NCBI GenBank assembly: GCA_026713825.1
Contig: JAPONS010000008.1
Span: 10,682-74,681 of the forward strand
Direction: 5' to 3'
DNA: 64,000 nucleotides
Source: Chloroflexota bacterium
Lineage (GTDB): Bacteria > Chloroflexota > Dehalococcoidia > Lucifugimonadales > UBA1127
In this document: in pieces, positions 4,066 to 58,057 of the stretch
Numbering within the stretch: position 1 is the stretch's first letter
Layout of the letters: each line of letters begins with the position of its first letter
Translations under genes and position numbers: made by a program
The notes under the pieces: generated by a model
Seen by the model: the letters and a program-made list of their open reading frames with translations, nothing else
What the model was told of the DNA's origin: nothing
Databases searched by the model: none

Positions 4066-4087
4066 CCGCGACCTCTTTCGCAACAAG

Positions 4088-4123
4088 AAGGGCTCCAACC
4101 CCGATCATGGGGTTGGAGCCCTT
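4088..4123. terminator. Bidirectional intrinsic terminator between convergent sodB and hemL
   Basis: AAGGGCTCCAACCCC-gatcat-GGGGTTGGAGCCCTT forms a perfect 15-bp stem with T/A-containing flanks. Confidence 0.65.
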
Positions 4124-4144: not shown

Positions 4145-5437
4145 CTACCCCGCCGCGGCCTTCCCCATCGCGACGTCTGCCGCCTCCAGCGTCAGCTCCA
4201 GGTCCGACGGCGTGTGCACCGTCGACACGAACGCAGCCTCAAACGCCGACGGCGCGAAGTACACCCCCTGCTCCAGCATCGAGTGGAAGAACCGCGAGTA
4301 CGCCCCCGCGTCCGACTGCGTCACCGCCTCCCAGCCGTCCACCGGCCCCGGGTTGAAGAACATGCTGAACAGCGACCCCACACGGTTGATCGTCACCGAG
4401 ACCTCGTGCGCCGCAGCAGCCGCCTGCAGCCCATCCGTCAGCTCGAGCGCCGTCTCCTCCAGCCCCTCGTACACCCCCGGCCTCTCCACCGACTTCAGCG
4501 TCGCGATCCCCGCCGCAACGGCCACCGGGTTCCCCGAGAGCGTGCCCGCCTGATACGCCGGCCCCAGCGGCGCCACCTGCTCCATGACCTCGCGCCGCCC
4601 GCCGTACGCGCCGATGGGCATCCCGCCCCCGATGATCTTCCCCAGCGTCGTCAGGTCCGGCGTGACCCCGTACAGCCCCTGCGCCCCCCCGTGCGCGACC
4701 CGGAACCCCGTGATCACCTCGTCGAAGATCAGCAGCGCCCCGTGCTCCGTCGTTATGTCCCGCAGCCCCTGCAGGAACCCCTCCCCCGGCGGCACGACGC
4801 CCATGTTGCCCGCCACCGGCTCCACGATCACCGCCGCGATGTCCCCGCCGTTCGCCGCGAACTGCGCCCGGACGCTCTCCATGTCGTTGTAGTCCGCCAG
4901 CAGCGTCTCGCCCGCGTAGCTTGCGGGAACCCCCGCGCTGTCCGGCACGCTCAGCGTCGCCGCCCCCGAGCCCGCCTTCACCAGCAGCCCGTCCGAGTGC
5001 CCGTGGTAGCACCCTACGAACTTCACCACCTTCGACCGCCCCGTGTGCGCCCGCGCCATCCGGATCGCGCTCATGCACGCCTCCGTGCCCGAGTTCACCA
5101 GCCGCACCAGCTCGACCGACGGCAGCGCCGCGCAGATCAACCGAGCCAGCTCCACCTCGCCCGGCGTCGGCGCCCCAAAACTCGTTCCACGCTTCGCCGA
5201 TTCCTGCACCGCCAGCACCACCGACGGGTGCGCGTGCCCCAGCACCAGCGGCCCCCACGACGCCAGGTAGTCGATGTACTCGTTGTTGTCCGCGTCCCAC
5301 ACCCGCGACCCGCGCCCGCGAAGGATGAACGGCGGCTCGCCGCCCACGCCCCGGAACGACCGCACGGGGCTGTTCACCCCGCCGGGAATGACCTTCTGCG
5401 CTTCCTCGAACAGCCGCTTGGACAGGTTGTTGTTCAT
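4145..5437 (-). CDS. hemL: Glutamate-1-semialdehyde 2,1-aminomutase
   Basis: MNNNLSKRLFEEAQKVIPGGVNSPVRSFRGVGGEPPF...; full-length HemL-like sequence of 430 aa. Confidence 0.95.
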   Translation of the reverse strand: MNNNLSKRLFEEAQKVIPGGVNSPVRSFRGVGGEPPFILRGRGSRVWDADNNEYIDYLASWGPLVLGHAHPSVVLAVQESAKRGTSFGAPTPGEVELARLICAALPSVELVRLVNSGTEACMSAIRMARAHTGRSKVVKFVGCYHGHSDGLLVKAGSGAATLSVPDSAGVPASYAGETLLADYNDMESVRAQFAANGGDIAAVIVEPVAGNMGVVPPGEGFLQGLRDITTEHGALLIFDEVITGFRVAHGGAQGLYGVTPDLTTLGKIIGGGMPIGAYGGRREVMEQVAPLGPAYQAGTLSGNPVAVAAGIATLKSVERPGVYEGLEETALELTDGLQAAAAAHEVSVTINRVGSLFSMFFNPGPVDGWEAVTQSDAGAYSRFFHSMLEQGVYFAPSAFEAAFVSTVHTPSDLELTLEAADVAMGKAAAG

Positions 5438-5476
5438 GGTGAGTCAGTCCTTGTAGAGGTTGATGTAGGTTCCGTG

Positions 5477-6262
5477 CTACGGCGTCTTCCGCCGCGTGAA
5501 GAGCAGCCCGCTCCACGTCTTGTCAATGGCCGCCACCTTGTAGTCGACCAGCCCCGCCGCGAGTCCCGCCTCGCGCACCGCCTGCTGCATCACGTCCGTC
5601 GCCACCCCCGAGGCCCGCTTAGGCCACGCCATCCACAGCCCGCCCCGTTCGGCGACGGCGTCGATAGCGCGGCCAAGGCCAGTCTCCAACTCGGCCAGCG
5701 AGCTGAGGAACCAGACGGCCAGCGGAGCGGGCCCGCTTGCGTCCCAGTCCAGCATGGCGCCCTCCGGCAGTGGCCCCAGCGTCCGTTCAAAGTCATCCGG
5801 AGCGCCCAGCAGCGTCACCGTCATCCCCGGCTTGACCCCCAGCTTCTTTGGCAGCGGCGTCCCCGAGTACCCCGCAAACAGCGACTCCGGCACCACCGGC
5901 GATTCCGGCGGGTTCGCAATCGCCTCCGCCAACGCCCCGCCGATGTCCTCCCAAGAGGCATACGCCGCGTCCGGCAGTACCTCCCGCAACCGCGCAACCT
6001 TCTCGGGGTCGCCCCCCGCGAAGACCATCGGCACCCGCCGCGTCGTCTTGCGCTCCCGCAGCGAGATCGCCAGCTCCCGCATGTGCGACGGCACCCGCGT
6101 GATGTCGAAGACGTAAGCGTCAGGCGGCGTCTGCCACACCCGCTTCAGCGCGTCCCGGTCGTCCAGCGGGTCGAACAGCACGTCGTACCCCAGCGCGTGC
6201 AGTGCCGCGATGCGCTCTGCCGCCTCCAGCGGCCGCAGGTGGAGCAGGCGCACCCTTGGCAT
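5477..6262 (-). CDS. Hypothetical protein: receiver-like N-terminal half plus DUF3052-like C-terminal half
   Basis: 261-aa ORF with coding-like composition, embedded in the heme operon. The C-terminal GYSGTPLPKKLGVKPGMTVTLLGAPDDF...LWMAWPKRASG resembles DUF3052 proteins (from memory, unverified). Confidence 0.55.
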   Translation of the reverse strand: MPRVRLLHLRPLEAAERIAALHALGYDVLFDPLDDRDALKRVWQTPPDAYVFDITRVPSHMRELAISLRERKTTRRVPMVFAGGDPEKVARLREVLPDAAYASWEDIGGALAEAIANPPESPVVPESLFAGYSGTPLPKKLGVKPGMTVTLLGAPDDFERTLGPLPEGAMLDWDASGPAPLAVWFLSSLAELETGLGRAIDAVAERGGLWMAWPKRASGVATDVMQQAVREAGLAAGLVDYKVAAIDKTWSGLLFTRRKTP

Positions 6263-6264
6263 CG

Positions 6265-7044
6265 CTAGCTGCTCACCTCAACGTCGATGCCCACCGGGCA
6301 GTGGTCGCTCCCCATGACCTCAGACAGAATGAACGCGCCCTTGATCTTGTCCGCCAGCCCCGTGCTCGCGTAAAAATAGTCGATGCGCCACCCCACGTTC
6401 CGGTCCCGCGCCCGCGAGATCATGTCCCAGTACGTGTAGTTGCCCGGCTCCTCGTTGAACATCCGGAACGTGTCCAGGTGCCCGTGCGCCAGCAGCTTGT
6501 CGATCCACTTCCGCTCGACCTCCAGGAACCCGGACACGTTCTCGTTCTCCTTCGGCCGCGCCAGGTCGATGGCCTTGTGCGCCGTGTTCACGTCGCCGCA
6601 GATGACCACATTGCGCCCCGACGCCGTCTGCCCGTCGATGTGCTCAAGGAAGGCGTCGTAGAAGCGCATCTTGTAGTCCAGCCGCACGTCGGAGCTCTTG
6701 CCGTTCGGGAAGTACACCGCGTACAGCAGGAACTCGCCGTAGTCCGCGATGAGCGTCCGCCCCTCGCTGTCGAACTCGTCCACCCCGAACCCTACCGTCA
6801 CCGACGCCGGCTCCCGCTTCGTGTAGATCGCGACGCCGCTGTACCCCTTCCGCTCCGCCGACGCGAAGTAAGCATGGTACCCGTCAACCTCTTTCAGCGC
6901 GGGCGGAAGCTGGTCCGGGTGCGCCTTCGTCTCCTGGACGCACAGCACGTCCGGGTCCGCCTCCGCCATCCATTCCAAGAACCCCTTCTTGAGCCCCGCG
7001 CGGATGCCGTTCACGTTCCACGAGAGCAGTCTCAGCGTCGCCAT
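6265..7044 (-). CDS. xth: Exodeoxyribonuclease III
   Basis: [40 protein letters not shown]...SDHCPV. The start ATG 7042-7044 overlaps the hemB stop (TAATG). Confidence 0.92.
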
Positions 7045-8027
7045 TACTCCCCCCTCTGCAGCCAACGCGCCACGTCCTTGGCGAAGTAGGTGATCAGGAT
7101 GTCCGCCCCCGCGCGCCGGATGGCGGTGAGCACCTCCATGGCAACCCGGCCCTCGTCGAGCCAGCCCATCTGCCCCGCCGCCTTGATCATGCTGTACTCG
7201 CCGCTCACGTTGTACGCCGCCAGCGGGTGCGGAAACGCCTCTCGCGCCTGCCGCAGCACGTCCAGGTACGCCAGCGCCGGCTTCACCATCAGGATGTCCG
7301 CGCCCTCAGCCGCGTCCTGCTCCAGCTCCCGCATCGCCATCCGCGCGTTGGCCGGGTCCATCTGGTACCCCCGCCGGTCGCCCACCTGCGGCGTCGAGTC
7401 CGCTGCCACCCGGAACGGCCCGTAGAACGCCGACGCATACTTCGAGGCGTATGCCATCACCGGCGTGTCGTCGAGCCCCGCCGCGTCCAGCGCCGCGCGT
7501 ATCGCCCCGACCTGCCCGTCCATCATCGCCGACGGCGCGACGATGTCCGCCCCCGCCTGCGCGTGCGACACCGCCGTCTTCGCTAGCAGATCCAGCGTCG
7601 CGTCGTTGTCCACCGTCGCACCGTCGAGGATGCCGCAGTGTCCGTGGTCCGTGTACTCGCACAGGCACACGTCCGTCACGACGGCCAGCTCCGGCACAGC
7701 CGCCTTGATGGCCCGCACCGCCTCCTGCACCACGCCCGTCGACGCGTACGCCTGCGACCCCACGCCGTCCTTGTCGTTCGGCAGCCCGAACAGCAGCACC
7801 GCCGGGATCCCCAGCGACGCCACCTCCCGCGCCTCGTCCGCCAGCGCCGAGATCGGCAGTTGGTAGCACCCCGGCATCGGCTCGATCGGCGTCGGCGCAC
7901 CCTCTGCCTCCGTCACGAAGAGCGGGTAAACGAACGACGCCGCCGACAACCGCGGCTCCTGCGCCCACCGCCGCACGGCCTCCGAGCCGCGCAGCCGCCG
8001 CAACCGGACCGTCGGAAACTCTGCCAT
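7044..8027 (-). CDS. hemB: Porphobilinogen synthase (delta-aminolevulinate dehydratase)
   Basis: ORF 7044..8066 trimmed to ATG 8027 behind a GGAGGGAG SD. Protein reads [21 protein letters not shown]...FVYPLFV... Confidence 0.94.
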
Positions 8028-8078
8028 GACTCCCTCCGAGACTCTCTCGTGCCGAGCTGTCCTCAACTCGGCCCATTG

Positions 8079-9620
8079 TTAGCCTGACTGCCGCGCGAAC
8101 CACCCCTCGAGCGCGTCCACCATGCCCGGGATCGTGTACTCCTCGCCCACGGCGTCCACGCGCACGCCGAGCCCCCGCGCCGTCTCCGCCGTGATCGGCC
8201 CGATGCACGCCACGGCGCACCCGTTCACCAACGTTGGGTCGCCGCCCAGCGCATCCACCAGCCCCCGCACCGTCGACGAGCTCGCGAACGTCGCCGCGTC
8301 CACGCCCTCGGCGAAGACGTCCTTGGCCCGCTCGGCCACATCCTCCCCCGGCCTAGCGCGGTACAGCAACACCTCGTCCACCGAGGCCCCTGCCCTCTGC
8401 AGCTCCTCGATGAGCACGCTCCGTCCCCCCTCGGCCCGCGGCAGCAGCACCCGGTCGCCCGAAGCGAGCATGGGCGCGAGCCCCGCGGCCAGCGCCTCGG
8501 CCACGTACGATTCCGGCATGAAGTCGGCCTTGATCCCGTGCTCCTGCAACGCCCGTGCCGTCCCCGGCCCGATGACCGCCAGCCGCACGCCGCCCAGCGC
8601 CCGCGCGTCGAGCCCCCGCGCCGCCAGCCGGTCGAAGAACAGCCCCACGCCGTTCGCGCTCGTGAACACCAGCCACTGATACGCCGAAATGTCAGCCAGC
8701 GCCTTATCGAGCGGCCCCGCCATGTTTGGCGGGGCTACCGCGCTGTCCAGCGGCTCCACCGCGATGACCGGCAGCTCCACCGGCACGGCCCCCCGCGACG
8801 CCAGCAGCGCGCTCAGCGCCGACGCCTGCTGCCGCGTCCGCGTCACCAGCACCCGCTTCCCGAAGAGCGGGCTCGTGTCGAACCACCGAAGCTGCTCGCG
8901 CAGCGCCGCCACCTGTCCGACGATCGTCACCGCTGGCGGCTTCAACGCCGCATCCTTTACGTGCTCCACCACGTTCGACAGATCGCCTGACACCGTCCGC
9001 TGCTGCTGCGTCGTGCCCCACTCGACCACGCACACCGGCGTGTCCGGCGGCTTGCCTGCCGCTGTGAGCGCCCCCACAACCGAGGGCAGCGTCTCGACGC
9101 CCATGAGCACCACCAGCGTGTCCACCCGCGCCATCGCCTCCCAGTCGACGCCCGACGCGGCCCGCGAGGGGTCCTCGCTCCCCGTCACCACGGCGAAGTT
9201 CGCCGCCACCTTGCGCTGCGTCACCGGTATCCCCGCGTACGCCGCCGCCGCAATGGCCGACGTGACCCCCGGCACCACCTCAAACGACACCGAGGCCGCC
9301 GCCAGCGCCAGAGCCTCTTCGCCCCCGCGCCCGAACACGAACGGGTCGCCGCCCTTGAGCCGCACCACCCGCTTCCCCGCCGTGCCGTGCTCCACCAGCA
9401 GCGCGCTGATCTCCTCCTGCGACATCAGGTGGTCGCCCCGCCGCTTGCCCGCGTTGATGACCAGCGCGTCTTCGCGCACGTGCGTTAGCAGTTGCTCCGC
9501 GATGAGCCGGTCATGCACCACGACGTCCGCCGCCTGCAGCAGCGCCAGCCCTTTGGCCGTGATGAGTCCCGGGTCCCCCGGACCCGCGCCCACCAGCGAG
9601 ACCATCCCCGGCCGGCTCAT
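8079..9620 (-). CDS. cobA-hemD: Fused uroporphyrinogen-III C-methyltransferase / uroporphyrinogen-III synthase
   Basis: ORF trimmed to ATG 9620 (ATGA overlap with the hemC stop). The N-terminal half has VSLVGAGPGDPGLITAKGL...GGDPFVFGRGGEE (SUMT). The C-terminal half is HemD-like. Confidence 0.9.
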   Translation of the reverse strand: MSRPGMVSLVGAGPGDPGLITAKGLALLQAADVVVHDRLIAEQLLTHVREDALVINAGKRRGDHLMSQEEISALLVEHGTAGKRVVRLKGGDPFVFGRGGEEALALAAASVSFEVVPGVTSAIAAAAYAGIPVTQRKVAANFAVVTGSEDPSRAASGVDWEAMARVDTLVVLMGVETLPSVVGALTAAGKPPDTPVCVVEWGTTQQQRTVSGDLSNVVEHVKDAALKPPAVTIVGQVAALREQLRWFDTSPLFGKRVLVTRTRQQASALSALLASRGAVPVELPVIAVEPLDSAVAPPNMAGPLDKALADISAYQWLVFTSANGVGLFFDRLAARGLDARALGGVRLAVIGPGTARALQEHGIKADFMPESYVAEALAAGLAPMLASGDRVLLPRAEGGRSVLIEELQRAGASVDEVLLYRARPGEDVAERAKDVFAEGVDAATFASSSTVRGLVDALGGDPTLVNGCAVACIGPITAETARGLGVRVDAVGEEYTIPGMVDALEGWFARQSG

Positions 9621-10561
9621 GCCCCGTCCTCCGCCAGCAGCGCCGCCGCGCCCTGCTCCAGCAGCTTCTGCGCCAGCTCGCCGCCGAGCGCCTCCGCATC
9701 CCGCGCCTCGCCCGCGACGTAGTCCCGGTACAGCGGCTCGCCGCCGACGCCGGCGACCATGCCGAAGACGCGGATGTACTCGTTCATCACGCTCCCGAAG
9801 CATCCCATCGGCGTGCGGCACCCGCCGCCCATCGCCCGCAGAAACGCCCGCTCCGCCGTGACTTCCCACCGCGTCGCCCGGTGCTCCAGCGCCGCCAGCA
9901 TCCCGAGCAGTTCCCCGTCGTCCGACCGCGTCTGCAGCGCGATGGCTCCCTGCCCGACTGCCGGGATGAACGTCAGCGGGTCCAGTCGCTCCGTCGCCTC
10001 GCCCTCGCGCCCCAGCCGCACAAGCCCGGCCGCCGCAAGCACCAGCGCGTCGTACTGCCCCTCCTGCATCTTCCGTATCCGCGTGCCCACGTTCCCCCGC
10101 ACGTCCTGCACCACCGCGTCAGGCCGCGCGGCCCGCACCAGCGCGGCCCGTCGAGGGCTGCTCGTCCCGACGACCGCCCCCAGCGGCAGCTCCGCCAGCG
10201 TCGCCCCCGAGCGGCTCACCACGACGTCGCACGGGTCCTCGCGCTCCAGCACCGCGGCGATCGCCAACCCCTCCGGCCCCGTCGCCGACATGTCCTTCAG
10301 GCTGTGCGCCGCCATGTCGATGCGCCCATCCAGCAGCGCCGCCTCCAGCTCCTTCGTGAACACACCAAGCCCAAGCTCAGACAGCGGGGTCTCTTGGGAA
10401 GCGTCTCCTGTGGTGGTCACAACCTGGACGTCAACGTCAAATTCGGGGTATTGGGCCCGTAGCGCGTCCACGGCCCGCTCCGCCTGTGCAAGCGCCAGCG
10501 GGCTCCCGCGCGTCCCCACGACGATGCGCTCCCGCGCCGAGGCGGTTTCGCCCGCTGTCAT
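9617..10561 (-). CDS. hemC: Hydroxymethylbilane synthase (porphobilinogen deaminase)
   Basis: IVVGTRGSPLALAQAERAVDALRAQYPEFDVDVQVVTTTGD... Confidence 0.95.
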   Translation of the reverse strand: MTAGETASARERIVVGTRGSPLALAQAERAVDALRAQYPEFDVDVQVVTTTGDASQETPLSELGLGVFTKELEAALLDGRIDMAAHSLKDMSATGPEGLAIAAVLEREDPCDVVVSRSGATLAELPLGAVVGTSSPRRAALVRAARPDAVVQDVRGNVGTRIRKMQEGQYDALVLAAAGLVRLGREGEATERLDPLTFIPAVGQGAIALQTRSDDGELLGMLAALEHRATRWEVTAERAFLRAMGGGCRTPMGCFGSVMNEYIRVFGMVAGVGGEPLYRDYVAGEARDAEALGGELAQKLLEQGAAALLAEDGA

Positions 10562-10563
10562 GG

Positions 10564-11883
10564 CTAGACCCGCTCTGCGGGGGCCCCGCTCGGGTCTTCC
10601 TCCCCGCCGGCGTCGACTGAAAAGTCGTCAGCCGGGGCCTCGTCCAGCCGGAAAAGCCACCGCAGCGTCTGGATGTCCTCCGGCCGGCCCTCGGCCTTCA
10701 CCCGCGTCACCGGGTGGTGCAGCAGCTTGTTCACCAGCGCCCGGCTCAGCGCCGCCACCGTCTCCTGGTCCGCCTCCGCCAAATGCGACAGCCGCCGCAG
10801 CGCCCGCTCCAGCTCCTGCTCCCGCAGCGTCTCCGCCTGCTCCCGCAGATCGACCAGCGTTGGCACCACCCGCAGCGAGTCCCACCACTCGTGGAACCGC
10901 GTCACCTCTTCCTCGACGATGGCCTCCACCCGCGCGGCCTCCTGCTGCCGCCGTTGCCGGTTCGTCTCCGCCACCCGGTCGAGGTCGCTCATGTCCGCCA
11001 GCGTCACCCCCGCAACGTCCCGCACCGCCGGGTCGATGTCCCTCGGCAGAGCGGCGTCCAGCAGCAGCAGCGGCTTGCCTCCGCGGCCCGCCGCCGCGCC
11101 CGACACGTCCGCGCCCGTCACCACGTAGTCCGGCGACCCCGTGGCAGAGATGACGACGTCGTACTCGCGCAGCGCCCCCTGCAGCCCGTCCAGCGGCAGC
11201 ACGTCCGCGCCGCCCAGCTCCTCCGCGAGCTCCGATGCGCGCACCTCCGTCCGGTTCATCACCGTCAGCCGCGAGATCCCCGCGTTCTGCAGCGCCTGCG
11301 CCGCCAGCCGCCCGGCCTCGCCCGCGCCGACGACGAGCCCGTGCGCGCCGTCCAGCTGCCCCAGCGTCCGCCGCGCCAGCTCCACGAACGCGTAGCTCAC
11401 CGACTGCGCGTTCCGACCGATGTCCGTGTCCCGCCGCGCCCGCTTGCCCACGCGCAATGCCTGGTGGAACGCATGCGTCATCGGCGAGTGCGCCGTCTTC
11501 GCCGCAACCGCCGCCCCAAACGCCTCGCGCACCTGCCCCAGCACCTCGGACTCGCCCAAAATCATCGAGTCTAGGCTGCACGTCACCCGGAACAGGTGCC
11601 GCGCCGCCGCGTCGTGGTGGTAGCCGTACACGTACGGCTCCACGCCCTCGTACCCAACGCCGTAAGCCTCGAACACCCCTGCCGCGGCTTCCCGCGCGTC
11701 CTCCAGGTCCTCCGCCAGCGTGTAGAACTCTGTCCGGTTGCACGTGTGCAGCACGACGCCCTGCCCGGCCCGCTCGGCGAGCATCCGGTTCGCCCCAGCC
11801 AGGTCGTGCCCCACGACGGCCAGCTGCTCCAGCGCCTCCAGCGGCGCCGTCCGGTGGTTGACGCCCACGACGGCCAGCTTCAC
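10564..11883 (-). CDS. hemA: Glutamyl-tRNA reductase
   Basis: VKLAVVGVNHRTAPLEALEQLAV...HTCNRTEFY. The GTG start at 11881-11883 overlaps the upstream stop (GTGA). Confidence 0.93.
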   Translation of the reverse strand: MKLAVVGVNHRTAPLEALEQLAVVGHDLAGANRMLAERAGQGVVLHTCNRTEFYTLAEDLEDAREAAAGVFEAYGVGYEGVEPYVYGYHHDAAARHLFRVTCSLDSMILGESEVLGQVREAFGAAVAAKTAHSPMTHAFHQALRVGKRARRDTDIGRNAQSVSYAFVELARRTLGQLDGAHGLVVGAGEAGRLAAQALQNAGISRLTVMNRTEVRASELAEELGGADVLPLDGLQGALREYDVVISATGSPDYVVTGADVSGAAAGRGGKPLLLLDAALPRDIDPAVRDVAGVTLADMSDLDRVAETNRQRRQQEAARVEAIVEEEVTRFHEWWDSLRVVPTLVDLREQAETLREQELERALRRLSHLAEADQETVAALSRALVNKLLHHPVTRVKAEGRPEDIQTLRWLFRLDEAPADDFSVDAGGEEDPSGAPAERV

Positions 11884-12554
11884 GACGCCACCGCCTTGAC
11901 CCAGTGCGGCCACGATTCGAGCAGCTCCGTCAGCCGCGCCTCCGCGCGCTCACGCTCGCCGTCTTGGTACAAGTCCAGCACCTCCGCGTTCAGCGACGCC
12001 TGCCATCCCTCCGGGTCCACCGTGACCGAGCGTCCCCGCAGGTCCGCCCGCACGCGCCCGACCATCTCCGCCAAGTCCGCGTACGCCAGCGCGTCGTTCG
12101 CCTCCAGCGATTCCCGCAGCTTCCGCGCCAGCGCCGGCGCCAGCCCGCCCGTCGACATCGCCAGCGTCACCGGCCCCCGCCGCACGATGCTCGGCGCGAT
12201 GAACGTGCACAGGTGCGTCACGTCCACGACGTTCAGCGGTACGTTCCGCTCCGTCGCCTCCCGCGACACCCCCTCGTTCACGTCCGAGTCGTCCGTCGCC
12301 GCAATCGAGATGAACGCCCCCGCCAGGTCCCCCGCCGCGTACGTGCGTTCGTACAGCGTCACGACACCAGCATCGGCCAGCGCGCGCACGCGCTCGGTGC
12401 TCTCCGGCGCCACGACGGTCACCTCCGCCCCCGCGTCCAGCAGCCCCTCCACCTTGCGCTCCGCGATCGTCCCCCCGCCTATGACGACGCATCGCCGCCC
12501 CTCGACGGTGAGGAACACCGGGTAGTGCTTGTGCGTAGCCGTCCGTTGCGCCAT
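11880..12554 (-). CDS. sirC: Precorrin-2 dehydrogenase / sirohydrochlorin ferrochelatase (SirC / CysG N-terminal type)
   Basis: ORF trimmed to ATG 12554. MAQRTATHKHYPVFLTVEGRRCVVIGGGTIAERKVEGLLDAGAEVTVVAP is an NAD-binding fold typical of siroheme synthase N-terminal domains. Confidence 0.82.
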   Translation of the reverse strand: MAQRTATHKHYPVFLTVEGRRCVVIGGGTIAERKVEGLLDAGAEVTVVAPESTERVRALADAGVVTLYERTYAAGDLAGAFISIAATDDSDVNEGVSREATERNVPLNVVDVTHLCTFIAPSIVRRGPVTLAMSTGGLAPALARKLRESLEANDALAYADLAEMVGRVRADLRGRSVTVDPEGWQASLNAEVLDLYQDGERERAEARLTELLESWPHWVKAVAS

Positions 12555-12583
12555 GCGAAAAATTCTCCGGTTGCCTCGCGCCC

Positions 12584-13615
12584 CTACACGAAGTAGCGGA
12601 CGCGCGTCTTTTTGTACTCGCGCGTGCTGTACAGCAGGATGTAGTCGTCGACGCCCGTCTCCTTGGCCAGCTCCTTCGCCACGTCCTCGCACCGGCTCCG
12701 GCTCGTCGCGTGGATCATCGCGAAGTGGCTGTACGGCCAGTCCGGGAACACCGGCCGCTCGTAGCAGTGGCTCACCCACCGAGAGTTCGCCAGCGCCTGC
12801 CCGACCTGCAGCTTCCGTTCCTCCGGCACCCGCCATACGCTCATCGCGTTCGAGCGGAACCCCGCCTTCCGGTGGTGCAGCACCGCGCTGTACCGCCGCA
12901 TGACGCCCCGCTCCTGGAAGCCGCGCATGATTGCGAACATCCCCTCGGGCGTCAGCCCCAGCCGCTCGGCCATCGCGTCGAACGGCCGCACGTCCAGCGA
13001 CAGGTCCTCCTGCACCTCGCGCACCACGTCGATCTCGTAGTCCGTCAGCTGCTCCACCTTGTTCCAGCTCTCGTTGTCCGGGCGGTAGTCAGCGGCGTTC
13101 CCCTCCTCGTTCACCATGTCGAAGTTCACGCCGATCTTGTAGAACCGTAGCGTCGGCAGCAGCCGCCACGATTCGACGTGCGTCTCCTCCGCCATCCGCG
13201 CCGCCGTCTCCTCCAGGCTCTCGTACGGCGGCACCGCCAGCGTGAACCACAGGTTGTACTCGTGCCCCACCCGCGCGTAGTTGTGGCTCACGCCCGGGTG
13301 CTTGTTGATCGCCAGCGCGCCCTTGTGCAGCAGTTCCTCCGGGTACCTGAACGCGATCAGCGACGTCTTGTACCCCAGCCGCCGCGTGTCGAAGATGCCG
13401 CTGATCTGCCGCACCACGTTCTCCCGCCGCAGCCGCCGGATCCGCTCGATGACGTCGTCCTCCTCCAGCCCCAGTTCCCGTCCGATGGCCAGGTACGGCC
13501 GCTCGTCCATCGGGAACTCCGTCTGGATGACGTTCAGCACCTGCCGGTCGAGCAGGTCCATCTCCGCCGCGCGGCCCTCCGACGCCGTGGTGTTAGGCGC
13601 CTGCCTTGTTGCCAT
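12584..13615 (-). CDS. ahbAB: Siroheme decarboxylase, fused AhbA/AhbB (NirD/NirL-like) two-domain protein
   Basis: Two tandem Lrp/AsnC-like halves: LDRQVLNVIQTEFPMDERPYLAIG...HPGVSHNYARVGHEYNLWFTL and DYEIDVVREVQEDLSLDVRPFDAMA...NSRWVSHCYERP. An AAAGGAG SD lies 5 nt before ATG 13615. Confidence 0.8.
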   Translation of the reverse strand: MATRQAPNTTASEGRAAEMDLLDRQVLNVIQTEFPMDERPYLAIGRELGLEEDDVIERIRRLRRENVVRQISGIFDTRRLGYKTSLIAFRYPEELLHKGALAINKHPGVSHNYARVGHEYNLWFTLAVPPYESLEETAARMAEETHVESWRLLPTLRFYKIGVNFDMVNEEGNAADYRPDNESWNKVEQLTDYEIDVVREVQEDLSLDVRPFDAMAERLGLTPEGMFAIMRGFQERGVMRRYSAVLHHRKAGFRSNAMSVWRVPEERKLQVGQALANSRWVSHCYERPVFPDWPYSHFAMIHATSRSRCEDVAKELAKETGVDDYILLYSTREYKKTRVRYFV

Positions 13616-14261
13616 TCCGGCTCCTTTCGTACGCGTCGACCATGGCGATCATGATCACGTCGGCAATCGTTTCAACGTGGTGCCACGCCTGCGCCAGCGT
13701 GTCGGCGTCCGACGACCCCCGCCGCGCCATCGAGCGCACCGATTCCGTCAGCGGCGTCCGGAAGAACACGAAGGCCTCCATCAGCTCCCGAAGGCTCAGC
13801 CCCCGCTGCGTCAGCGCCTCGCCGTACTCCTCGCCGATCACCCGCACCTCGTCCAGCGCCTGCGCCGACGGCCGCTTTCGCTCCATCAGGCTCTCTGTCA
13901 CGTCCAGCAGCCGCCGCCCGAAGAGCCGCAGCCGCCCTCGCGTGGCCTCGTCCATCTCCTCGTACCACGGGAAGCTCACCAGCCGGTCGCCGTGCAGCAG
14001 CCGCCGGATCCGCCGCGTCGTCACCGACGTGATCGTCTGCGACGGCATCACCCGGCCCGACGGCGACTCCGCCGCGCGCTGCATCGCCGCCAGCAGGTCC
14101 TCCCGCAAAAACCGGCGGTGCCCGCCCGGCGTCCGGAACGCGCGGATGACCCCGTTGTCGGCCCACATCCGCAGCGTCGTCTCGTTCACGCCCAGCATCC
14201 GGCAGGCCTCCCCCAGGGAAACCCACCGCCCGCTCGACTGCCGCCGTTCCGTCTGCTGCAT
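13593..14261 (-). CDS. HTH (MerR/excisionase-type) DNA-binding protein, first gene of the heme operon
   Basis: MQQTERRQSSGRWVSLGEACRMLGVNETTLRMWADNGVIRAFRTPGGHRRF is an HTH segment. ATG 14261 is preferred over TTG 14273. Its end overlaps the ahbAB start by 23 nt. Confidence 0.7.
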   Translation of the reverse strand: MQQTERRQSSGRWVSLGEACRMLGVNETTLRMWADNGVIRAFRTPGGHRRFLREDLLAAMQRAAESPSGRVMPSQTITSVTTRRIRRLLHGDRLVSFPWYEEMDEATRGRLRLFGRRLLDVTESLMERKRPSAQALDEVRVIGEEYGEALTQRGLSLRELMEAFVFFRTPLTESVRSMARRGSSDADTLAQAWHHVETIADVIMIAMVDAYERSRNGNKAGA

Positions 14262-14302
14262 CCCGCCCCACAAAAATCTAGGGAAATCTAAATAATCTCA
14301 AG

Positions 14303-14349
14303 GTTTGGCAAAACCAAACTAAGGTATCACGTACGCAAGTGACCGTCAA
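14303..14349 (-). promoter_or_regulatory. Promoter TTGACG-17-TACCTT followed by inverted repeat GTTTGG-N5-CCAAAC (candidate operator)
   Basis: Minus strand: TTGACG (14349-14344), 17-nt spacer, TACCTT (14326-14321). The perfect 6-bp inverted repeat sits at 14303-14319. The whole element lies in a locally AT-rich patch. Confidence 0.4.
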
Positions 14350-14370: not shown

Positions 14371-14399
14371 AAAAAACCCCTTCCCCCTTTGGGGGAAGG
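14371..14399 (-). terminator. Intrinsic terminator of the CoA-transferase gene (also a member of hairpin-repeat family HP-C)
   Basis: Minus strand reads CCTTCCCCC-aaa-GGGGGAAGG followed by GGTTTTTTCTTT. Confidence 0.7.
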
Positions 14400-25730: not shown

Positions 25731-26855
25731 CTAGCCCACCACGGTCGCGCAGATGACGTAGACCTCCAGCGTCCAACTGCCGCTCTGCTCCGACGTCTCT
25801 GCCGCGCTCGCCGTCCAGCCCAGCGGCTTGTCGCCGGGCACGCCCGTCCGCGCCGACGCCGGCAGGCTCACGCCTGCGCTTGCGCCCGTGATGCTCGCGC
25901 CGCCCGCGACCGCGAACAGGTCGCTGCCCGCGTCCGCGCACATCGCCGAGGCGGACTTGTCGTCGCTCGTGGAATCCGAGCTGACCTTCACAAGGGTCAG
26001 GTTGCTGATGCCGGGTTCACCCTGGACGCCCTGCGGGCCGTGCGGGCCCCCAGCGCCCGTGAGGCCGGGAGCGCCGCGTTCGCCGGCCTCACCCTGCGGG
26101 CCGCGCTCGCCCTGCGGGCCCTGCGGGCCAATCGCTCCGGGCGGGCCCATGACGCCCTCGTCACCCTTGATGCCCTGCGGGCCGGTCGGGCCTTGCGTCC
26201 CGGTCTCGCCCTGCGGCCCCTGCGGGCCAACCTCGCCCTGCGGGCCGCGCTGCCCGGGCGGGCCCTGCTCGCCCTGCTCGCCCTGGATCCCCTGGGGGCC
26301 CTGGATCCCCTGCGCGCCGACCAGACCCTGCGGACCCGGAGCACCAATCAGGCCCTGCGGGCCGGTCGGGCCTTGCGGTCCTATCGGGCCTGGCGGACCG
26401 CCGGCCGGGCCTCTCGGACCCTCCGGGCCTGCGGGACCTATCGGGCCCTCGGGACCTATCGGGCCGCGCTCACCCTGGGGACCCTCCGGCCCGGGCGGGC
26501 CGCCCTCCGGGCCGCGCTCACCCACCGGGCCTTGCGGTCCCTCCGCGCCAGTCGCGCCCTGCGGCCCGCGATCGCCCTCCGCCCCCTGCGGACCCTGCGA
26601 CCCCTGCGGGCCTGCCGGACCCCGAAGTCCAGGCGACCCAATCGGCCCCTGGGCTCCGTCCTGCCCCGCCGCTCCCGTCGGACCCTGCGGGCCCGTCGCC
26701 CCTTGCGGGCCCGCGACCCCTTGCGGGCCCGTCGGACCCTGATCGCCCGTGCACGCCGGGAGCAACAGGAGGCCCATCAGGAGGAGAAGTGGGATCCAAA
26801 GACTGCGCCGCCAGACGCTGGAAGACTTCAGGTGCTTCGTATCGACTACCCTCAT
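25731..26855 (-). CDS. Collagen triple-helix-repeat lipoprotein with ~95-aa C-terminal globular domain
   Basis: ORF trimmed to ATG 26855 behind an AAGGAAGG SD. It has a signal plus lipobox (LLLLPAC), then roughly 85 Gly-X-Y triplets ([19 protein letters not shown]...), then a non-repetitive tail ending [14 protein letters not shown]. Confidence 0.85.
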
Positions 26856-26893
26856 GGTGAGCGTACCTTCCTTAAGGAGTTTTTCCGTTTGCA

Positions 26894-26922
26894 AGACTAC
26901 TATAGCCGCCTACCTGTGTCAA
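26894..26922 (-). promoter_or_regulatory. Promoter TTGACA-17-TAGTCT for the collagen-like gene
   Basis: Minus strand: consensus TTGACA (26922-26917), 17-nt spacer, TAGTCT (26899-26894). Confidence 0.5.
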
Positions 26923-27055: not shown

Positions 27056-27895
27056 CTAGCTCGCACGCCGACGCCGCGCCCACACCAGCCCCAGCAGCCC
27101 CAGCCCCGCCAGCAGCACGTACCCGTCCGCCCGCGACCCCTGCCCGCACGTCCCCGGCTCGTCCGGCTCCGGCGTCGGCGTCGCCTCCACCTCCGGTGTC
27201 GCCGTCGGCGTCGCCGTCACGATGATCGGCGGCAACGGCGTCGGCGTCGGCGCCGGCGTCGCCGTCGGCTCCGGCGTCGGCACAGCCGTCGCCGTCGGCA
27301 CTGCCGTCGGCGATGGCGTCGGTGTCTCCGTCGCCACAGCCGTAGCCGTCGGCGATGGCACAGGCGTCGCCGGGACCGCCGTCGGCGTGGCCGTTGCCGC
27401 CGGTGTCGGCGTCGCTGTCGGATCCGGCGCCGGCGGCAGCGCCGGGAACGTCAGGTTGAACCCGTCCACGACGTTCGGTCCCGGAATGAACGTCGCCACC
27501 TCCGCCGCCGTCAGCCCCTCCGGCCCCAGGTGCGCCGTGATCGTGTTCTCCACCGCGATGATGTGGAAGCTGATGTTGCGGAAGTTGAACACCACGTTGG
27601 TGGGCCCGACGATGAGGTTCTGGTACTCGCCGTTCCTGGTGGCCCGCGGCCGCGACTCGTAGCCGTCGATGACGGGGCTGGGGCTCTCTATCCGCGCGAC
27701 GACCATCAGCCCTTGTGGCGCGGCCTCTCCCCCGACCGTCACCGTGCCCGAGTACGTGACCGGGCCCGGCGGCGGCTGTCCTCCTATCTGGGCCTGGACG
27801 TCCCGCCCGCCAGCCAGCGCAAACGCCAGCAGCGCGGCAAAGACGGCAAACGTCAGGATGAGGGCAACCCTGGTGCGGTGTGCTGCAAGTAGCAT
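27056..27895 (-). CDS. Secreted protein: signal peptide, ~125-aa domain, Pro/Thr-rich linker, Cys-containing C-terminal TM + Arg-rich tail
   Basis: ORF trimmed to ATG 27895. Signal MLLAAHRTRVALILTFAVFAALLAFALAGGRDVQAQ, linker ...PTATPTPAATATPTAVPATPVPSPTA..., and C-terminus ...PEPDEPGTCGQGSRADGYVLLAGLGLLGLVWARRRRAS. Confidence 0.75.
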   Translation of the reverse strand: MLLAAHRTRVALILTFAVFAALLAFALAGGRDVQAQIGGQPPPGPVTYSGTVTVGGEAAPQGLMVVARIESPSPVIDGYESRPRATRNGEYQNLIVGPTNVVFNFRNISFHIIAVENTITAHLGPEGLTAAEVATFIPGPNVVDGFNLTFPALPPAPDPTATPTPAATATPTAVPATPVPSPTATAVATETPTPSPTAVPTATAVPTPEPTATPAPTPTPLPPIIVTATPTATPEVEATPTPEPDEPGTCGQGSRADGYVLLAGLGLLGLVWARRRRAS

Positions 27896-28001
27896 GGTCT
27901 TCTCCCGTATCTGAAAGCTCACCAACAGTGAGCCATATTCGTGGCCTTCCCGGGTGGACGCCGCTCAAAACACAACGGCCCGGTCAGCCGACCTGTACAG
28001 G

Positions 28002-28344: not shown

Positions 28345-31300
28345 TTACGGGATGAGCACCCCGTCCGCGGTGGCGTAGAGCCAGTAGCCCTTGCCCACCG
28401 TTACCGGCGCCTTCAGGACGACCCGGTCGTTGTCGTCGAACTTGTTGGGGTCGTTCTCGTCCGCGCCGACGGGGTCGGCCTCAACCACAGGATCTGCAGT
28501 CGAATCGGCCTTCACTGCGTCACCGGTGTCGCGTTCCGTGTATGCGCCCATCTGGCACGGCTCGGTCCCGTCCAGCACCTTCTCCGCGTCAGGCTTCTTG
28601 CCGGTGCATGGGTTGGTGTCATCCACGCCCACGGTCACCGTGTCGCCGGGGGTCACGGAGCTCCAGACCCTGGACAGGGTTTCAAAGGTCAGGGCCTTCA
28701 ACCAGCCCGCGTTGGAGCCGGACCTGAGGGTGCCGAAGTAGTCGTCCGCTGCGACGCCCTCAGGGGCGGGCACGGAAATTGTGATCACGGGCACCAGGTT
28801 CCAGCCTTCCACCACTGTGACGGCGGGCGGCTGAATGTTCGCTGAGGCAGAGGTCGTCAGCGCCGGCCGCAACATCTTCAACGGCTGGAAGTTCTCCGTC
28901 CGTACGAAGTAGGCCGTACTGGCCGTCATCGCGACGATGTCGCCCACAAAGTTCCCCGTCTCCGTGTCCCGGCGGGAGAACAACCACGTCTGGTTGACGT
29001 TGTCAAAGGTCATGACAATGCTCACCGGGTGCGTGGGCGGTATCACGCTGTTGATGGCCGGGTTGGCTGGCTGGAAGGGCAGCGAGATCAGGTTCCAGCC
29101 GGGAGACAAGTCGATCTCCACCGGCTTGGGCTTGACCACGTCCCAGGATGCCTTCAGGTCCGCGGATCCGTCGATCTGTGTGTTCCCCGCCTGGTCCACG
29201 GCCTGCACCGTCAGCGTGTAAGCGCCGATCTTGGGGTTCAGCAGCGGAATGGTGAACTTCACGTTGTCCGGCGTGGTGACGCCCGTGGTCAGGTCTATGG
29301 TGCTGGGCTCCGTGGTGCCGTCCGGAAGCCGGATGCTCAGCTTGGCGGAGGTCAGCGTCACCGTCTTGTAGCTGTCCCGCGCGTACTCATCCCCTTCCAT
29401 CGTAAAGTCCACCGTCACGATGAGAGGGTCAACCTGCTCCACGTTGTCGGCGGTGCCGGACTTGTTTGCCACGTCCTTAACGCTGGCAACGTCGAATTGC
29501 GGAGGCACGCCCTTGTTCAGCTTCTTGTCCAACTCAAAGGTGAAGGAGCCGGGGTCGGCCGCGGAATCACTGTCGCCCGCCGTGCTCTCGACCTCACTGG
29601 TGTCCGCGGCCTTCACGTAGACGCTGAACTCTCCGCCGTCGGAGTTCTCATGCGTGTAGGTGTAGCTCATGGAACCCGTCTGCCTCACCGGACTCCTTGC
29701 AGTCGCGCCCTCGGCTTCGGCTTCGGCGTCGCCATTGGCGGCGGCCTCGGTGACGTACACCGTCGGCGTCGCGTTCAGTTGCTCGTCCGTGGTGATCGTG
29801 ACCGTCACCTTGTCGTTGCTCAGGTCCGCGCTCTTGGACAGGTTGAGGTTCGGCCCCAGCTTGTCAACGGCCCTTGTCCGCACGGCGGTCACGGCGTTGC
29901 CGGCCTTGTCCCGGATCTGGGAACCGGCGATGTCCACCCACGGCCTCTCCGTGGAACCCAGGTTGTCCGCCAGAGTCAAGTAGACTCTGTTGCCGACCGT
30001 CCGCACGGACTCCACCGTGTGGCCGCTGACGCTGAAGGCGGCTTCCGTCACGGTGTCGGCGTCGATGCCGCTGCCGGGGGCGGTGCTGTCGGTCTTGCCC
30101 TCGTCCGCGAAGGTGACCTTGATGGAGTTCTTCTGGGCCTTGTCCGCCTTCGTGGTAGCGTTGTAGCCAATGCCCGTCACCACCGGGTTGCCGCTGGCCA
30201 GCGCCGGATTGACGCTGTCTATGGTGATGAGGTTGGTGCCAAGGATCTCATAGGTGTCCTTGGGCGCAGGTTGGCAGGCGGTAAGCTGGTCGGCTGCGAC
30301 CTCGTCATCTTCACCATTCTCCTTGGTTCGGGTTGCAGTAGTAACCGTGGCGGGGGCGGTAGGAGCAGTGCGCGTATAGTCGTCTCTAGCATCAACCGGG
30401 CACTGATAACCGCCCGTTCCGATTAGAGGGGTGGAATCGGCGGCAGCGGAGTCGCTAGGGACATCCTTCACCGCATCGTCAAAGAGCGGGTCGTACGTCT
30501 CTCCCGCCGTTATTTCGTTCGCGACCACGAAAGTGCCGTTTGACCCCGTAAAGGTTACGGACTGGTTGTTGCTCACAAACGTGTTGGTCCCAACCTTCTT
30601 GCTCACTCTGACGCGGCTGCCCAGGAAGGTGTTATCGCTGAGGTTGCCGCTGAATTTGCTGTCGACTATCGTTCCCGCCGCGCTCCCCACGCCGGCAGTG
30701 CCGGAGACGGAGCCGCTGGTCCGCTGCGAGTTGTTGGCCTCGTCTCGCACCTCGAAGTACCACGGCACGTTGGTGGCGATGGCCTGCAGGGCGGTGGAGT
30801 TGAGGGTCTTGCTGACCCGCCAGCCGTCGTCGATCTTGGTGAAGTCGCCCTCGACGAGGTTCACCACGTTGCCCGCGACCACCAGGCGCACGCCGCCCTC
30901 CCTGGTCAAGCTATTGTTTGCGGGAGGATCGCCGTCCGAGGTCAGGATGCCTGCGTCAGACAGGTTCGCACCGAGCCCGTTGTCGCCCGTGAACTTGGCG
31001 GCGAAGCCGGAGACGCTGTCCGTGATGTCCGCGCTGAAGGTGATGTTGGCGTTCCCCTTGACTATGAGGCCGGGAGCAGGGGAACTGGACACCAGGGACG
31101 GCCTTCCGTTGTCCACCCTCACCGTCTTGACGGAGCCGAAGGTGTTGTCGTCGGGTGTGTAGCTCACCTGGATCCGGTTGCCGTTGAAGGCCTTCACCTG
31201 GTAGGCGTTACCGGTGGTGCATTCGCCCTCGTCATAGGCACTGTCGGTGGTGCCGTCACCCGATTCACCGTTGATGTCGCACCTTGCGTCCACCAAGCCG

Positions 31301-31719: not shown

Positions 31720-31864
31720 TGTCCTTCCCTTTCGTGGGTGTTTGGGATGTCCCCTCGGCCCCGCCGGGGGAGTGTTCATCTCGGCCTCCCCGCATTCCCT
31801 GCGGGGTCAGCCGTCACGGTCCGGCTCTGGAGCGGGTCCCGCATCGGCTCGCCCAAGTGCGCCT

Positions 31865-31932
31865 CCGTTCGCCCCAAGGCTCTCGTGGGAGCCTGTCCTG
31901 AGGCTCTCGCCTGTCCTGAGGCTCTCGAAGGA
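31865..31932. repeat. Three tandem copies of repeat family R-D (variant CCTGTCCTGAGGCTCTCGAAGG)
   Basis: CCGTTCGCCCCAAGGCTCTCGTGGGA + GCCTGTCCTGAGGCTCTCG + CCTGTCCTGAGGCTCTCGAAGGA. Confidence 0.75.
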
Positions 31933-33097: not shown

Positions 33098-33134
33098 AAC
33101 CGGGGCCCGCAGGCCCGCCGGCGTCGGGGTTGGG

Positions 33135-33190
33135 CCGTTCGCCCTGAGGGAAATCGTTGGGCCGTTCGCCCTGAGGGAAATCGAAGGGGG
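33135..33190. repeat. Two tandem R-D copies (first truncated)
   Basis: CCGTTCGCCCTGAGGGAAATCG-ttggg-CCGTTCGCCCTGAGGGAAATCGAAGGGGG. Confidence 0.8.
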
Positions 33191-57306: not shown

Positions 57307-58057
57307 CGGGCTCTCCTTCTGCGGCGGCCTCCGCTCGGTCGATAACCTTCTGGTCTGCAGCCTCGTCCTCAGCTCGCATCGTTACTTCTATAGGGCCAAG
57401 GTCCTCAGCCGCCTCCTGCTCGCGCAACGGAACTATGTCGCCCTTGTAGACCCACACTTTTACTCCGATGCGGCCCATCGTCGTGCTTGCCTCGCTGATG
57501 GCGAAGTCGACGTCCGCGCGGATGGTGTGGAGGGGCACCCGCCCCATCATGACCTTCTCCCGTCGAGCGATGTCAGCGCCACCCAACCGTCCGCTCACGA
57601 TGATCTTGACGCCCTGAACGCCCGCTTGCATGGATCGCGTCGCCGTCTGCTGCATGGCGCGGCGGTGCGCCACGCGGCGCTCGAGCTGCTCGGCGCAGCT
57701 GCGGGCCACCAGAGCAGCCACTGTTTCCGGCTGCCGGACCTCCTGCACGGAAATCCGGACACGCCGCTCCGTCAGGGCCTCCAGCGCCTGCCGCATCTCC
57801 TCCACCCGCTGACCCTGGCGGCCAATGACGATGCCGGGACGGGCGGTCCAGATGACTACTGAAACGTCCTGGGGCCCCCGCTCAATCTCCACCTGCGGGA
57901 TGCCGGCCTCCGGGTAGCGGGTCAGGATCGCGTTGCGCAGCCGCAGGTCTTCCTGCAGCGTGTTGCGATAGTCCTGCTTTTTGGCGGCGAACCACCGGCT
58001 GTCCCAGTCCTTGATTATGCCGAGACGGAAACCAATAGGGTGCGTCTTATGTCCCAC
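57293..58057 (-). CDS. rpsC: 30S ribosomal protein S3
   Basis: GTG start. [23 protein letters not shown]... Acidic C-terminal tail. Confidence 0.96.

Follow-up and report, generated by a model that had tools for sequence, protein, structure and literature searches.

A ten-gene hem operon of an uncultured Dehalococcoidia lineage, with a predicted fused siroheme decarboxylase and a BldC-type regulator

Organisation and conservation of the operon

The DNA analysed here, a 64,000-nt stretch of contig JAPONS010000008.1 (Chloroflexota, Dehalococcoidia) which is called the window below, carries between positions 4145 and 14349 ten consecutive genes on the minus strand, among them the hem genes of the tetrapyrrole trunk, a gene for a predicted fused siroheme decarboxylase (AhbAB) and, at their head, a regulator gene. 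The DNA of this region is about 70% G+C, and the third-codon-position G+C of the ten genes, which lies between 0.82 and 0.95, marks the true reading frames. The gene identities were obtained by comparing the proteins of this region with Pfam and NCBIfam models. Several starts were shifted inward from the longest open reading frame (ORF), and the lengths then agreed with those of the called genes of close relatives; the start of the regulator (ATG 14261) agrees with relatives of 222 aa and that of the SirC-like protein (ATG 12554) with relatives of 224 aa. The features are the following, from the upstream to the downstream end:

14344..14349, minus strand: -35-like hexamer TTGACG of the putative operon promoter, read directly
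14321..14329, minus strand: extended -10-like element TGATACCTT (TG-n-TACCTT), 17 nt past the -35 hexamer, putative promoter element
14271..14299, minus strand: three direct repeats in the leader of the regulator gene, candidate operator
13593..14261, minus strand: regulator, a MerR/excisionase-type helix-turn-helix (HTH) protein of 222 aa (Pfam HTH_17, MerR, MerR_1)
12584..13615, minus strand: predicted fused siroheme decarboxylase AhbA-AhbB, 343 aa (NCBIfam AhbA and AhbB)
11880..12554, minus strand: precorrin-2 dehydrogenase of the CysG N-domain type (SirC-like), 224 aa (TIGR01470 cysG_Nterm, 165 bits, cut-off 62)
10564..11883, minus strand: HemA, glutamyl-tRNA reductase, GTG start (TIGR01035, 390 bits; relatives align from residue 1)
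9617..10561, minus strand: HemC, hydroxymethylbilane synthase (TIGR00212, 331 bits)
8079..9620, minus strand: CobA-HemD, fused uroporphyrinogen-III C-methyltransferase and uroporphyrinogen-III synthase (TIGR01469, 299 bits; Pfam TP_methylase and HEM4)
7044..8027, minus strand: HemB, porphobilinogen synthase, 327 aa (NF006762, 482 bits; start moved to ATG 8027, as in relatives of 327 aa)
6265..7044, minus strand: Xth, exodeoxyribonuclease III, not a tetrapyrrole enzyme (TIGR00633, 317 bits)
5477..6262, minus strand: P261, a protein of 261 aa, function unassigned (weak Pfam DUF3052 match, 23.9 bits)
4145..5437, minus strand: HemL, glutamate-1-semialdehyde 2,1-aminomutase (TIGR00713, 608 bits)
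4082..4121, minus strand: terminator-like hairpin after hemL, with a perfect 13-bp stem (GGGCTCCAACCCC/GGGGTTGGAGCCC), the loop ATGATC and a T-rich tail (TTCTTGTT)

The genes follow each other closely. A preliminary description of this DNA had given three start/stop overlaps, and all three were exact on direct reading: GTGA at 11880-11883 contains the stop of the SirC-like gene and the start of hemA, ATGA at 9617-9620 contains the stop of hemC and the start of cobA-hemD, and in TAATG at 7042-7046 the stop of hemB overlaps the start of xth. The gene that begins at the last of these is xth and not hemL. The regulator gene and ahbAB overlap by 23 nt, gaps of only 2 nt separate hemA from hemC and xth from the P261 gene, and hemL begins about 40 nt past the P261 gene. 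Downstream, the hairpin at 4082-4121, a part of which was called by the terminator scanner, sits between the convergent hemL and sod genes, and upstream another terminator-like hairpin (14379-14399) ends the CoA-transferase gene. Considering the tight junctions and the hairpins that bound the cluster, the ten genes look like one transcription unit. The operon had earlier been described with eight genes; all eight are present, but there are ten, xth and the P261 gene between hemB and hemL having been overlooked.

We looked for this arrangement in other genomes. In a scan of species-representative genomes, AhbAB had a counterpart of 97% identity on the 2.86 Mb chromosome OX638292.1, which belongs to an uncultured Dehalococcoidia metagenome-assembled genome (MAG), and counterparts of 62-93% identity in 14 further Dehalococcoidia/Chloroflexota MAGs of marine, lake, groundwater and other sources. 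When all ten proteins of the operon were used as tblastn queries, the order regulator-AhbAB-SirC-HemA-HemC-CobAHemD-HemB-...-HemL was observed in every sufficiently long locus. About 20 Dehalococcoidia/Chloroflexota loci, with AhbAB identities as low as 62%, keep the gene order, and its recurrence argues that the arrangement is not due to chance. Further metagenome contigs have the same order or a shortened one, AhbAB-SirC-HemC-CobAHemD-HemB. The shortened operon is also that of a more distant clade with about 62% AhbAB identity and genomes of 3.1-3.7 Mb (L002-L004, L020 and L026; related loci are denoted here by L and a number), where it adjoins the genes of a Ni-superoxide dismutase and its peptidase and where hemA and hemL lie elsewhere; the regulator is absent from the shortened operons of L002-L004 and L020.

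The content of the slot between hemB and hemL varies among the relatives. Xth fills it only down to about 76% AhbAB identity with the window; in the relatives at 76-78% exonuclease III is there alone, and P261 is confined to the closest clade, with an AhbAB identity of 88% or more. Elsewhere the slot holds unrelated small genes, for a weak CopD-like membrane protein (L021, 17098-17559) or for YjbR (L025, 11928-12293). P261 had no NCBIfam match and no sequence relative in the PDB. Its N-terminal part has a beta-alpha pattern resembling a receiver domain and its C-terminal part gave the weak DUF3052 match; the model built from the single sequence was unusable (predicted local distance difference test, pLDDT, 47). 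By their distribution, we read xth and P261 as lineage-specific passengers of a variable slot and not as components of the pathway.

The fused decarboxylase and the proposed route to heme

The 343-aa protein encoded after the regulator was compared with the NCBIfam equivalog models of both decarboxylase subunits, and it scored 249.2 bits with AhbA (NF040708, cut-off 140) and 239.9 bits with AhbB (NF040707, cut-off 125). The models of Lrp/AsnC regulators (LrpA, Lrp, LysM and ChrS) gave 21-31 bits on the same protein, their cut-offs being 180-250. The preliminary description had called it AhbA/AhbB-like and had left the choice between a decarboxylase and a plain Lrp/AsnC protein to profile hidden Markov models; with scores above both AhbA and AhbB cut-offs, and with no Lrp/AsnC model exceeding 31 bits, the comparison came out in favour of the decarboxylase. 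The protein is formed by two NirdL-like_HTH and two AsnC_trans_reg2 domains (Pfam PF22451 and PF17805; E 7e-29 and 3e-53). The closest solved structure is that of the single-chain NirDL of Hydrogenobacter thermophilus (4CH7/4CZC; 242 bits, E 7e-71), with 40% identity across 313 residues of 4CH7, and further matches were obtained with AhbA and AhbB of Desulfovibrio desulfuricans (4CZD/4UN1; 4CZD_A, E 4e-33; 4CZD_B, E 3e-25). In the alignment with NirDL, residues H111, H118, H248, H283 and H302 of AhbAB correspond to H93, H99, H226, H261 and H280, and these five common histidines include one in each SH(N/C)Y motif. Taken together, the assignment of the 343-aa protein as a siroheme decarboxylase, the entry enzyme of the Ahb route, is well supported by homology. 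Public records name members of this decarboxylase clade 'Lrp/AsnC family transcriptional regulator' (e.g., MDE2899842.1; L010), a label that would hide the siroheme pathway in automated surveys.

By comparison with the Ahb pathway of sulfate reducers and archaea (Desulfovibrio, Methanosarcina barkeri), the window has in common the CobA/SirA and SirC steps and a decarboxylase of the AhbA/AhbB family; the fusion of CobA with HemD occurs in Desulfovibrio too. It differs from that pathway in that AhbA and AhbB are one polypeptide and in that ahbAB is placed inside the hemA-hemL trunk operon of a high-G+C Dehalococcoidia, with ahbC and ahbD not adjacent. The NirDL of Hydrogenobacter has the same architecture of two modules in a single chain, with histidines in both SH(N/C)Y motifs as in AhbAB, whereas the gene of the window lies among hem genes and has no nir neighbours. 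A fused AhbAB of the same family is also found in ahbC-ahbD-ahbAB clusters, namely on plasmid pSb31l of Paenibacillus polymyxa and in the Chloroflexota locus L027; the identity with the window protein is only 34%, and there it has the radical S-adenosylmethionine (SAM) genes, but not the hem trunk genes, as neighbours.

From the gene identities we infer the following route. HemA, HemL, HemB, HemC and the HemD half of CobA-HemD would convert glutamyl-tRNA into uroporphyrinogen III, the CobA half would yield precorrin-2, and the CysG-N-like protein would oxidize precorrin-2 to sirohydrochlorin and possibly insert the iron as well. The fused AhbAB would then decarboxylate the two acetate side chains of rings C and D, which yields 12,18-didecarboxysiroheme. 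The route would be completed by the products of genes outside the window, AhbC forming coproheme and AhbD, or possibly the oxygen-tolerant ChdC, forming heme b. Thus, we propose that in this uncultured high-G+C Dehalococcoidia a single transcription unit provides the tetrapyrrole trunk and directs it into the siroheme-dependent (Ahb) route to heme, a reading to which we give a probability of about 0.75. The preliminary description regarded the operon as wired for an Ahb-type heme route; its entry enzyme is well supported, as seen above, and the complete pathway is only plausible.

The iron-insertion step deserves separate consideration. The siroheme-synthesis proteins found are CobA-HemD (299 bits with TIGR01469) and the SirC-like protein (165 bits with TIGR01470); a ferrochelatase of the SirB/CbiX type was not found by Pfam in the operon, nor among those ORFs of the 64 kb window that were scanned. 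The Pfam scans of the window took in the larger ORFs, and this scope applies to all such results below. The SirC-like protein is closer to CysG (1PJQ, 111 bits) than to the monofunctional SirC of B. megaterium (3DFZ, 74 bits), and the Asp at position 104 of CysG is aligned with, and kept as, D111. This is only suggestive that the SirC-like protein may double as ferrochelatase, as the bifunctional N-domain of CysG does. P261 was considered for the chelatase and rejected, given its restriction to the closest clade and its lack of a PDB relative. The coverage from glutamyl-tRNA through siroheme to didecarboxysiroheme that was claimed earlier holds for the trunk, CobA, the SirC-like protein and AhbAB; full coverage as far as siroheme is not demonstrable because no separate SirB/CbiX is present.

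Among the larger ORFs scanned we found no hemE, hemN, hemY, hemH, chdC, ahbC, ahbD or nir gene, either in the cluster or in the rest of the 64 kb window, and the related flanks that were screened had none either; that is, no uroporphyrinogen decarboxylase or gene of the coproporphyrin/protoporphyrin branch was detected. Here the Pfam and NCBIfam calls agree with the preliminary description, which saw no gene of the hemE, hemN, hemY or hemH type in the cluster and no ahbC or ahbD in the window. In a six-frame scan for the radical-SAM motif CxxxCxxC there were two matches in the window, both in non-coding frames, so that no ORF has the motif in a coding frame, and tblastn with the AhbC- and AhbD-like proteins of P. 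polymyxa pSb31l gave nothing in the window or in 21 related loci. In the five homologue contexts examined, no radical-SAM gene adjoins AhbAB.

Downstream enzymes of the route do occur in the phylum. In L023 a homologue of the regulator is followed by a fragment of the AhbC C-terminus and by a 400-aa AhbD-like protein, which scored 448 bits on TIGR04545, just below the cut-off of 500. With this AhbD as query, 6,785 homologues were obtained at E <= 1e-30; the best 120 of them are 64-72% identical, and the named ones among these 120 are Chloroflexota, Dehalococcoidia, Dehalococcoidales or 'heme b synthase'. None of the AhbD homologues listed could be assigned to the lineage of the window. In L027, AhbC (53% identical to that of Paenibacillus), AhbD and a fused AhbAB are encoded side by side. 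By their gene content, the pSb31l and L027 clusters show that a fused AhbAB would work with AhbC and AhbD in bacteria, including Chloroflexota. With only 34% identity between the AhbAB proteins of L027 and of the window, two deep clades of the fused enzyme can be distinguished, and the link from these clusters to the lineage of the window is an indirect one. The fragment in L023 is a 109-aa ORF (6662-6991, plus strand) that matches only the C-terminal 75 residues of AhbC/NirJ1, the SPASM part; it may be what is left of a disrupted ahbC, or else a SPASM domain that stands alone.

Several observations weigh against the proposed route. AhbC and AhbD are oxygen-sensitive radical-SAM enzymes, while the neighbouring gene for an Fe/Mn superoxide dismutase suggests exposure to oxygen. 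Neither ahbC and ahbD nor chdC was found for the lineage in the 64 kb examined of a genome of about 2.9 Mb. The operon has no dedicated sirohydrochlorin ferrochelatase, and similarity cannot establish that the SirC-like protein is bifunctional. The sequence of AhbAB does not separate a heme b fate from a heme d1 fate: the protein is only 34% identical to the fused AhbAB that adjoins AhbC and AhbD on the Paenibacillus plasmid and in L027, and 40% identical to a PDB entry deposited as 'NirD-like protein'. That entry, 4CH7, is the NirDL of H. thermophilus, which we take to belong to the heme d1 literature.

Three other readings were considered. The one that survives best is a hybrid ending in which AhbAB and AhbC lead to coproheme, which is then decarboxylated by the oxygen-tolerant ChdC and not by the radical-SAM AhbD. 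AhbD and ChdC are interchangeable terminal enzymes that occur in mixed combinations in prokaryotes (PMC13564367), with Haloferax as an example (PMC5746218), and the superoxide dismutase gene adjoining the operon hints at an oxic lifestyle. However, none of the window ORFs scanned was a chdC, and the search with the L023 protein showed AhbD to be abundant in Chloroflexota; we regard this ending as unlikely, although it is the strongest of the three.

It is less likely still that the operon supplies only uroporphyrinogen III, siroheme and corrin precursors, heme b being made by a coproporphyrin or protoporphyrin branch encoded elsewhere and the AhbAB-like protein being redundant, a relic or a regulator of the AsnC type. 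Enzymes of all three branches are reported to be mixed in Chloroflexota, 55% of which are said to encode the coproporphyrin pathway (PMC10991733; PMC10740692); the operon of L025 has the order regulator-SirC-HemA-HemC-CobAHemD-HemB, with no AhbAB at that position; and the downstream Ahb genes were not found for the lineage, neither in the 64 kb window nor in the related flanks. Against this stand the equivalog matches of the protein to both decarboxylase subunits, far over those to the Lrp/AsnC models, its full length and its conserved histidines. Moreover, its position is kept at 62-97% identity in many genomes, which argues for purifying selection on an enzyme.

Very improbable is, finally, a NirDL-type role in which the decarboxylase serves the synthesis of heme d1 for a cytochrome cd1 nitrite reductase and heme b is obtained by another route: AhbAB and NirDL/GH catalyse the same reaction, so the two roles are inseparable by sequence and only context separates them, the best solved match carries the NirD-like name, and plasmid homologues lie in nir clusters of denitrifiers, one of them beside a 'cytochrome D1 domain-containing protein', but in this clade the gene is embedded in a housekeeping hemA-hemL operon and not in a denitrification cluster. 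It is the first enzyme gene of the core hem operon and is never beside nirS, nirF, nirJ or nirN in the related loci with listed Pfam neighbours, and no gene for cytochrome d1, a NirJ-type radical-SAM protein or NirF/NirN was found in those loci or among the window ORFs scanned. This constant position at the head of the hem enzymes, away from nir genes, favours heme b over heme d1.

The siroheme-dependent reading leaves what is known of the pathway unchanged. Combinations of the protoporphyrin, coproporphyrin and siroheme branches have been described for Chloroflexota (PMC10991733, citing Kim et al. 2021) and siroheme synthesis genes have been noted in marine Dehalococcoidia (PMC7506110), so the route is not new in this phylum. 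The operon adds a well-documented case in which the predicted entry enzyme of the siroheme route belongs to the core hem operon; the Dehalococcoidia lineage that carries it is uncultured, abundant and apparently exposed to oxygen. Such a case is useful for pathway annotation and when heme prototrophy is to be predicted for uncultured Chloroflexota. What is fresh here is only the regulator, which looks previously undescribed and has its own candidate repeat operator.

The regulator and its candidate operator

The regulator is composed of a BldC/MerR-type winged HTH (residues ~13-62) and an all-helical domain (~77-221). A word-indexed search gave 124 relatives, and every organism name given among them is Chloroflexota, Chloroflexi or Dehalococcoidia; a profile search of 1.84 billion cluster representatives gave 415 at E <= 1e-30, most of the listed matches being full length, with ~210-230 residues. 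It heads tetrapyrrole gene sets in four arrangements: that of the window, regulator-AhbAB-SirC-HemC-CobAHemD-HemB (L026), regulator-SirC-HemA-HemC-CobAHemD-HemB with no AhbAB at that position (L025), and regulator-AhbC fragment-AhbD (L023). A distant member of the family, in L024, is not heme-linked.

The AlphaFold model of the regulator, built from 38 sequences, had a pLDDT of 85.3. Its HTH was superimposable with that of Streptomyces BldC (6AMK/6AMA; Foldseek, template-modelling (TM) score 0.82-0.85, with 0.85 for 6AMK), and BldC was matched by sequence as well; with the model HTH_BldC (NF033787) the regulator gave E 1.4e-11 and 44 bits, under the cut-off of 77. Residues R31 and H48 are invariant in the 38 sequences and are aligned with the DNA-contacting Arg and His of BldC, and all the invariant residues of the regulator fall in the HTH. 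The C-terminal domain gave weak Foldseek matches to the sensor globins DosC, BpeGReg and AfGcHK and to the fatty-acid-binding pXO1-118/pXO2-61 (TMt 0.5-0.69, E 8e-3 to 0.1), and weak matches to Rsbr_N and RsbRD_N, each in only 3 of the 38 family members. In this domain R112, G115 and R168 are near-invariant. A photoglobin assignment of the domain was rejected, since photoglobins typically go together with B12-binding domains, none of which is present, and the only Pfam signals are of the RsbR type.

In the leader of the regulator gene there is a promoter-like block, TGTGTTGAC-N-TCAC ... TGATA(C/T)CTT, which stayed conserved when 13 related leaders were aligned, its TGTGTTGAC...TCAC part being invariant. 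The consensus promoter scanner made no call because the -10 element matches at 3 of 6 positions; from this conservation we infer a promoter function for the elements at 14344-14349 and 14321-14329. Downstream of this block, at 14271-14299, run the three AT-rich repeats GAGATTATT TAGATTTCCC TAGATTTTTG with a period of 9-10 bp, which end 10 nt upstream of the regulator ATG. The string AGATTTNNNNAGATTT occurs once in the 64 kb window, where 0.04 occurrences are expected. Allowing at most one mismatch, the pattern AGATT-N4/5-AGATT was matched 54 times in 21 loci, and 37 of these matches lie within 80 nt upstream of the regulator gene, where 0.03 are expected (the upstream zones make up 1,680 of 849,106 nt, and many of the loci are close relatives and not independent). 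At least one match was observed upstream of the regulator gene in 20 of the 21 loci (the window, L001, L005-L017, L019, L021, L023, L025 and L026), and the repeats are kept even where the regulator is only 31-42% identical, as in L015 (AGATTTCCATAGATTTCCATAGGTTTTCA) and L026 (TAGATTTACATAGTTTTACATAGATTTCTC). The direct repeats bound by BldC itself are of the form AATTxxxx(C); the protein multimerizes on them head to tail, and GATTTCCCC is one natural site (PMC5859096). By analogy, the AGATTT repeats are likely to be the autoregulatory operator of the regulator. A 6-bp inverted repeat of the leader, GTTTGG-N5-CCAAAC, was also considered as operator and dropped, as it is not conserved in relatives. 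Rfam gave no riboswitch or other RNA family on the operon leader.

The regulator has in common with BldC the type of HTH and the AT-rich direct repeats of ~10 bp in the leader of its target. They differ in that BldC is a stand-alone domain of 68 residues which controls development, while the regulator has 222 residues, with an extra domain of ~150 residues of putative globin-like fold, and heads tetrapyrrole operons. It would therefore work like BldC at its DNA end, and yet it does not appear to be a plain BldC. The possible likeness to the non-heme sensor globins RsbR and pXO1-118 lies in the all-helical domain, in the lack of a conserved proximal histidine and in the near-invariant arginines; here the domain is fused to a DNA-binding domain and not to STAS, and its match to the globin fold is a weak one. 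Non-heme globins of the RsbR type have an arginine in place of the proximal histidine, and this arginine binds a carboxylate ligand (PMC8717448).

The most economical reading of the repeats and of the BldC analogy is that the regulator would bind the AGATTT repeats and control its own operon. It would probably occupy them downstream of the promoter, ahead of the regulator start codon, and a small ligand, for which we hypothesize a tetrapyrrole or another carboxylate, would be the signal by which it sets how strongly the operon as a whole is expressed. The literature searched contained no regulator for the siroheme-dependent route to heme. We tentatively suggest, as a possibility that falls short of being probable, that the protein may be the first of a so far undescribed class of one-component regulators that act on tetrapyrrole synthesis in Chloroflexota, in which the HTH would bind the AGATTT repeats of its own leader as head-to-tail multimers and the arginines of the globin-like domain would bind a carboxylate ligand (possibly heme, coproheme, siroheme or another tetrapyrrole), giving feedback control. 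The low significance of the globin-fold match and the lack of a conserved histidine in the domain tell against the proposed regulatory mechanism. What could open something new in this locus is the regulator with its candidate operator, which provide a concrete, testable DNA site and a domain that may bind a ligand.

Remaining features of the window

The families that Pfam gave for the larger ORFs in the rest of the window are all of the housekeeping kind, among them trehalose-6-phosphate synthase, the Fe/Mn superoxide dismutase, CoA-transferase, PCMT, GpsA, PrmA, DnaJ, GrpE, HrcA, Rex, the F-type ATP synthase, a ribosomal protein/SecY/Adk/Map cluster, RpoA and EF-G. ARAGORN located a tRNA-Ala(GGC) at 1523-1598 on the minus strand and, within the ribosomal protein gene region, a tRNA-Ser(GCT) at 57619-57711 on the plus strand; Rfam at its gathering threshold gave only the former.

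At 25731-26894 (minus strand) a protein of 387 aa is encoded with four stretches of collagen triple-helix repeats (Pfam Collagen, E 4.6e-37), which are matched in the DNA by tandem repeats of 18 and 27 nt at 26172-26741. The gene next to it (27056-27925) has GC-rich tandem repeats of 6, 12 and 30 nt and no Pfam match. A 1,144-aa ORF at 28345-31779 (minus strand) belongs to no Pfam family at E <= 0.001, and its third-position G+C of 0.84 is a strong coding signal. Perfect tandem duplications are located at 33129-33183 (27 nt x2) and 31891-31927 (18 nt x2.1), in or near the intergenic DNA that flanks the small genes of 32.2-32.7 kb.

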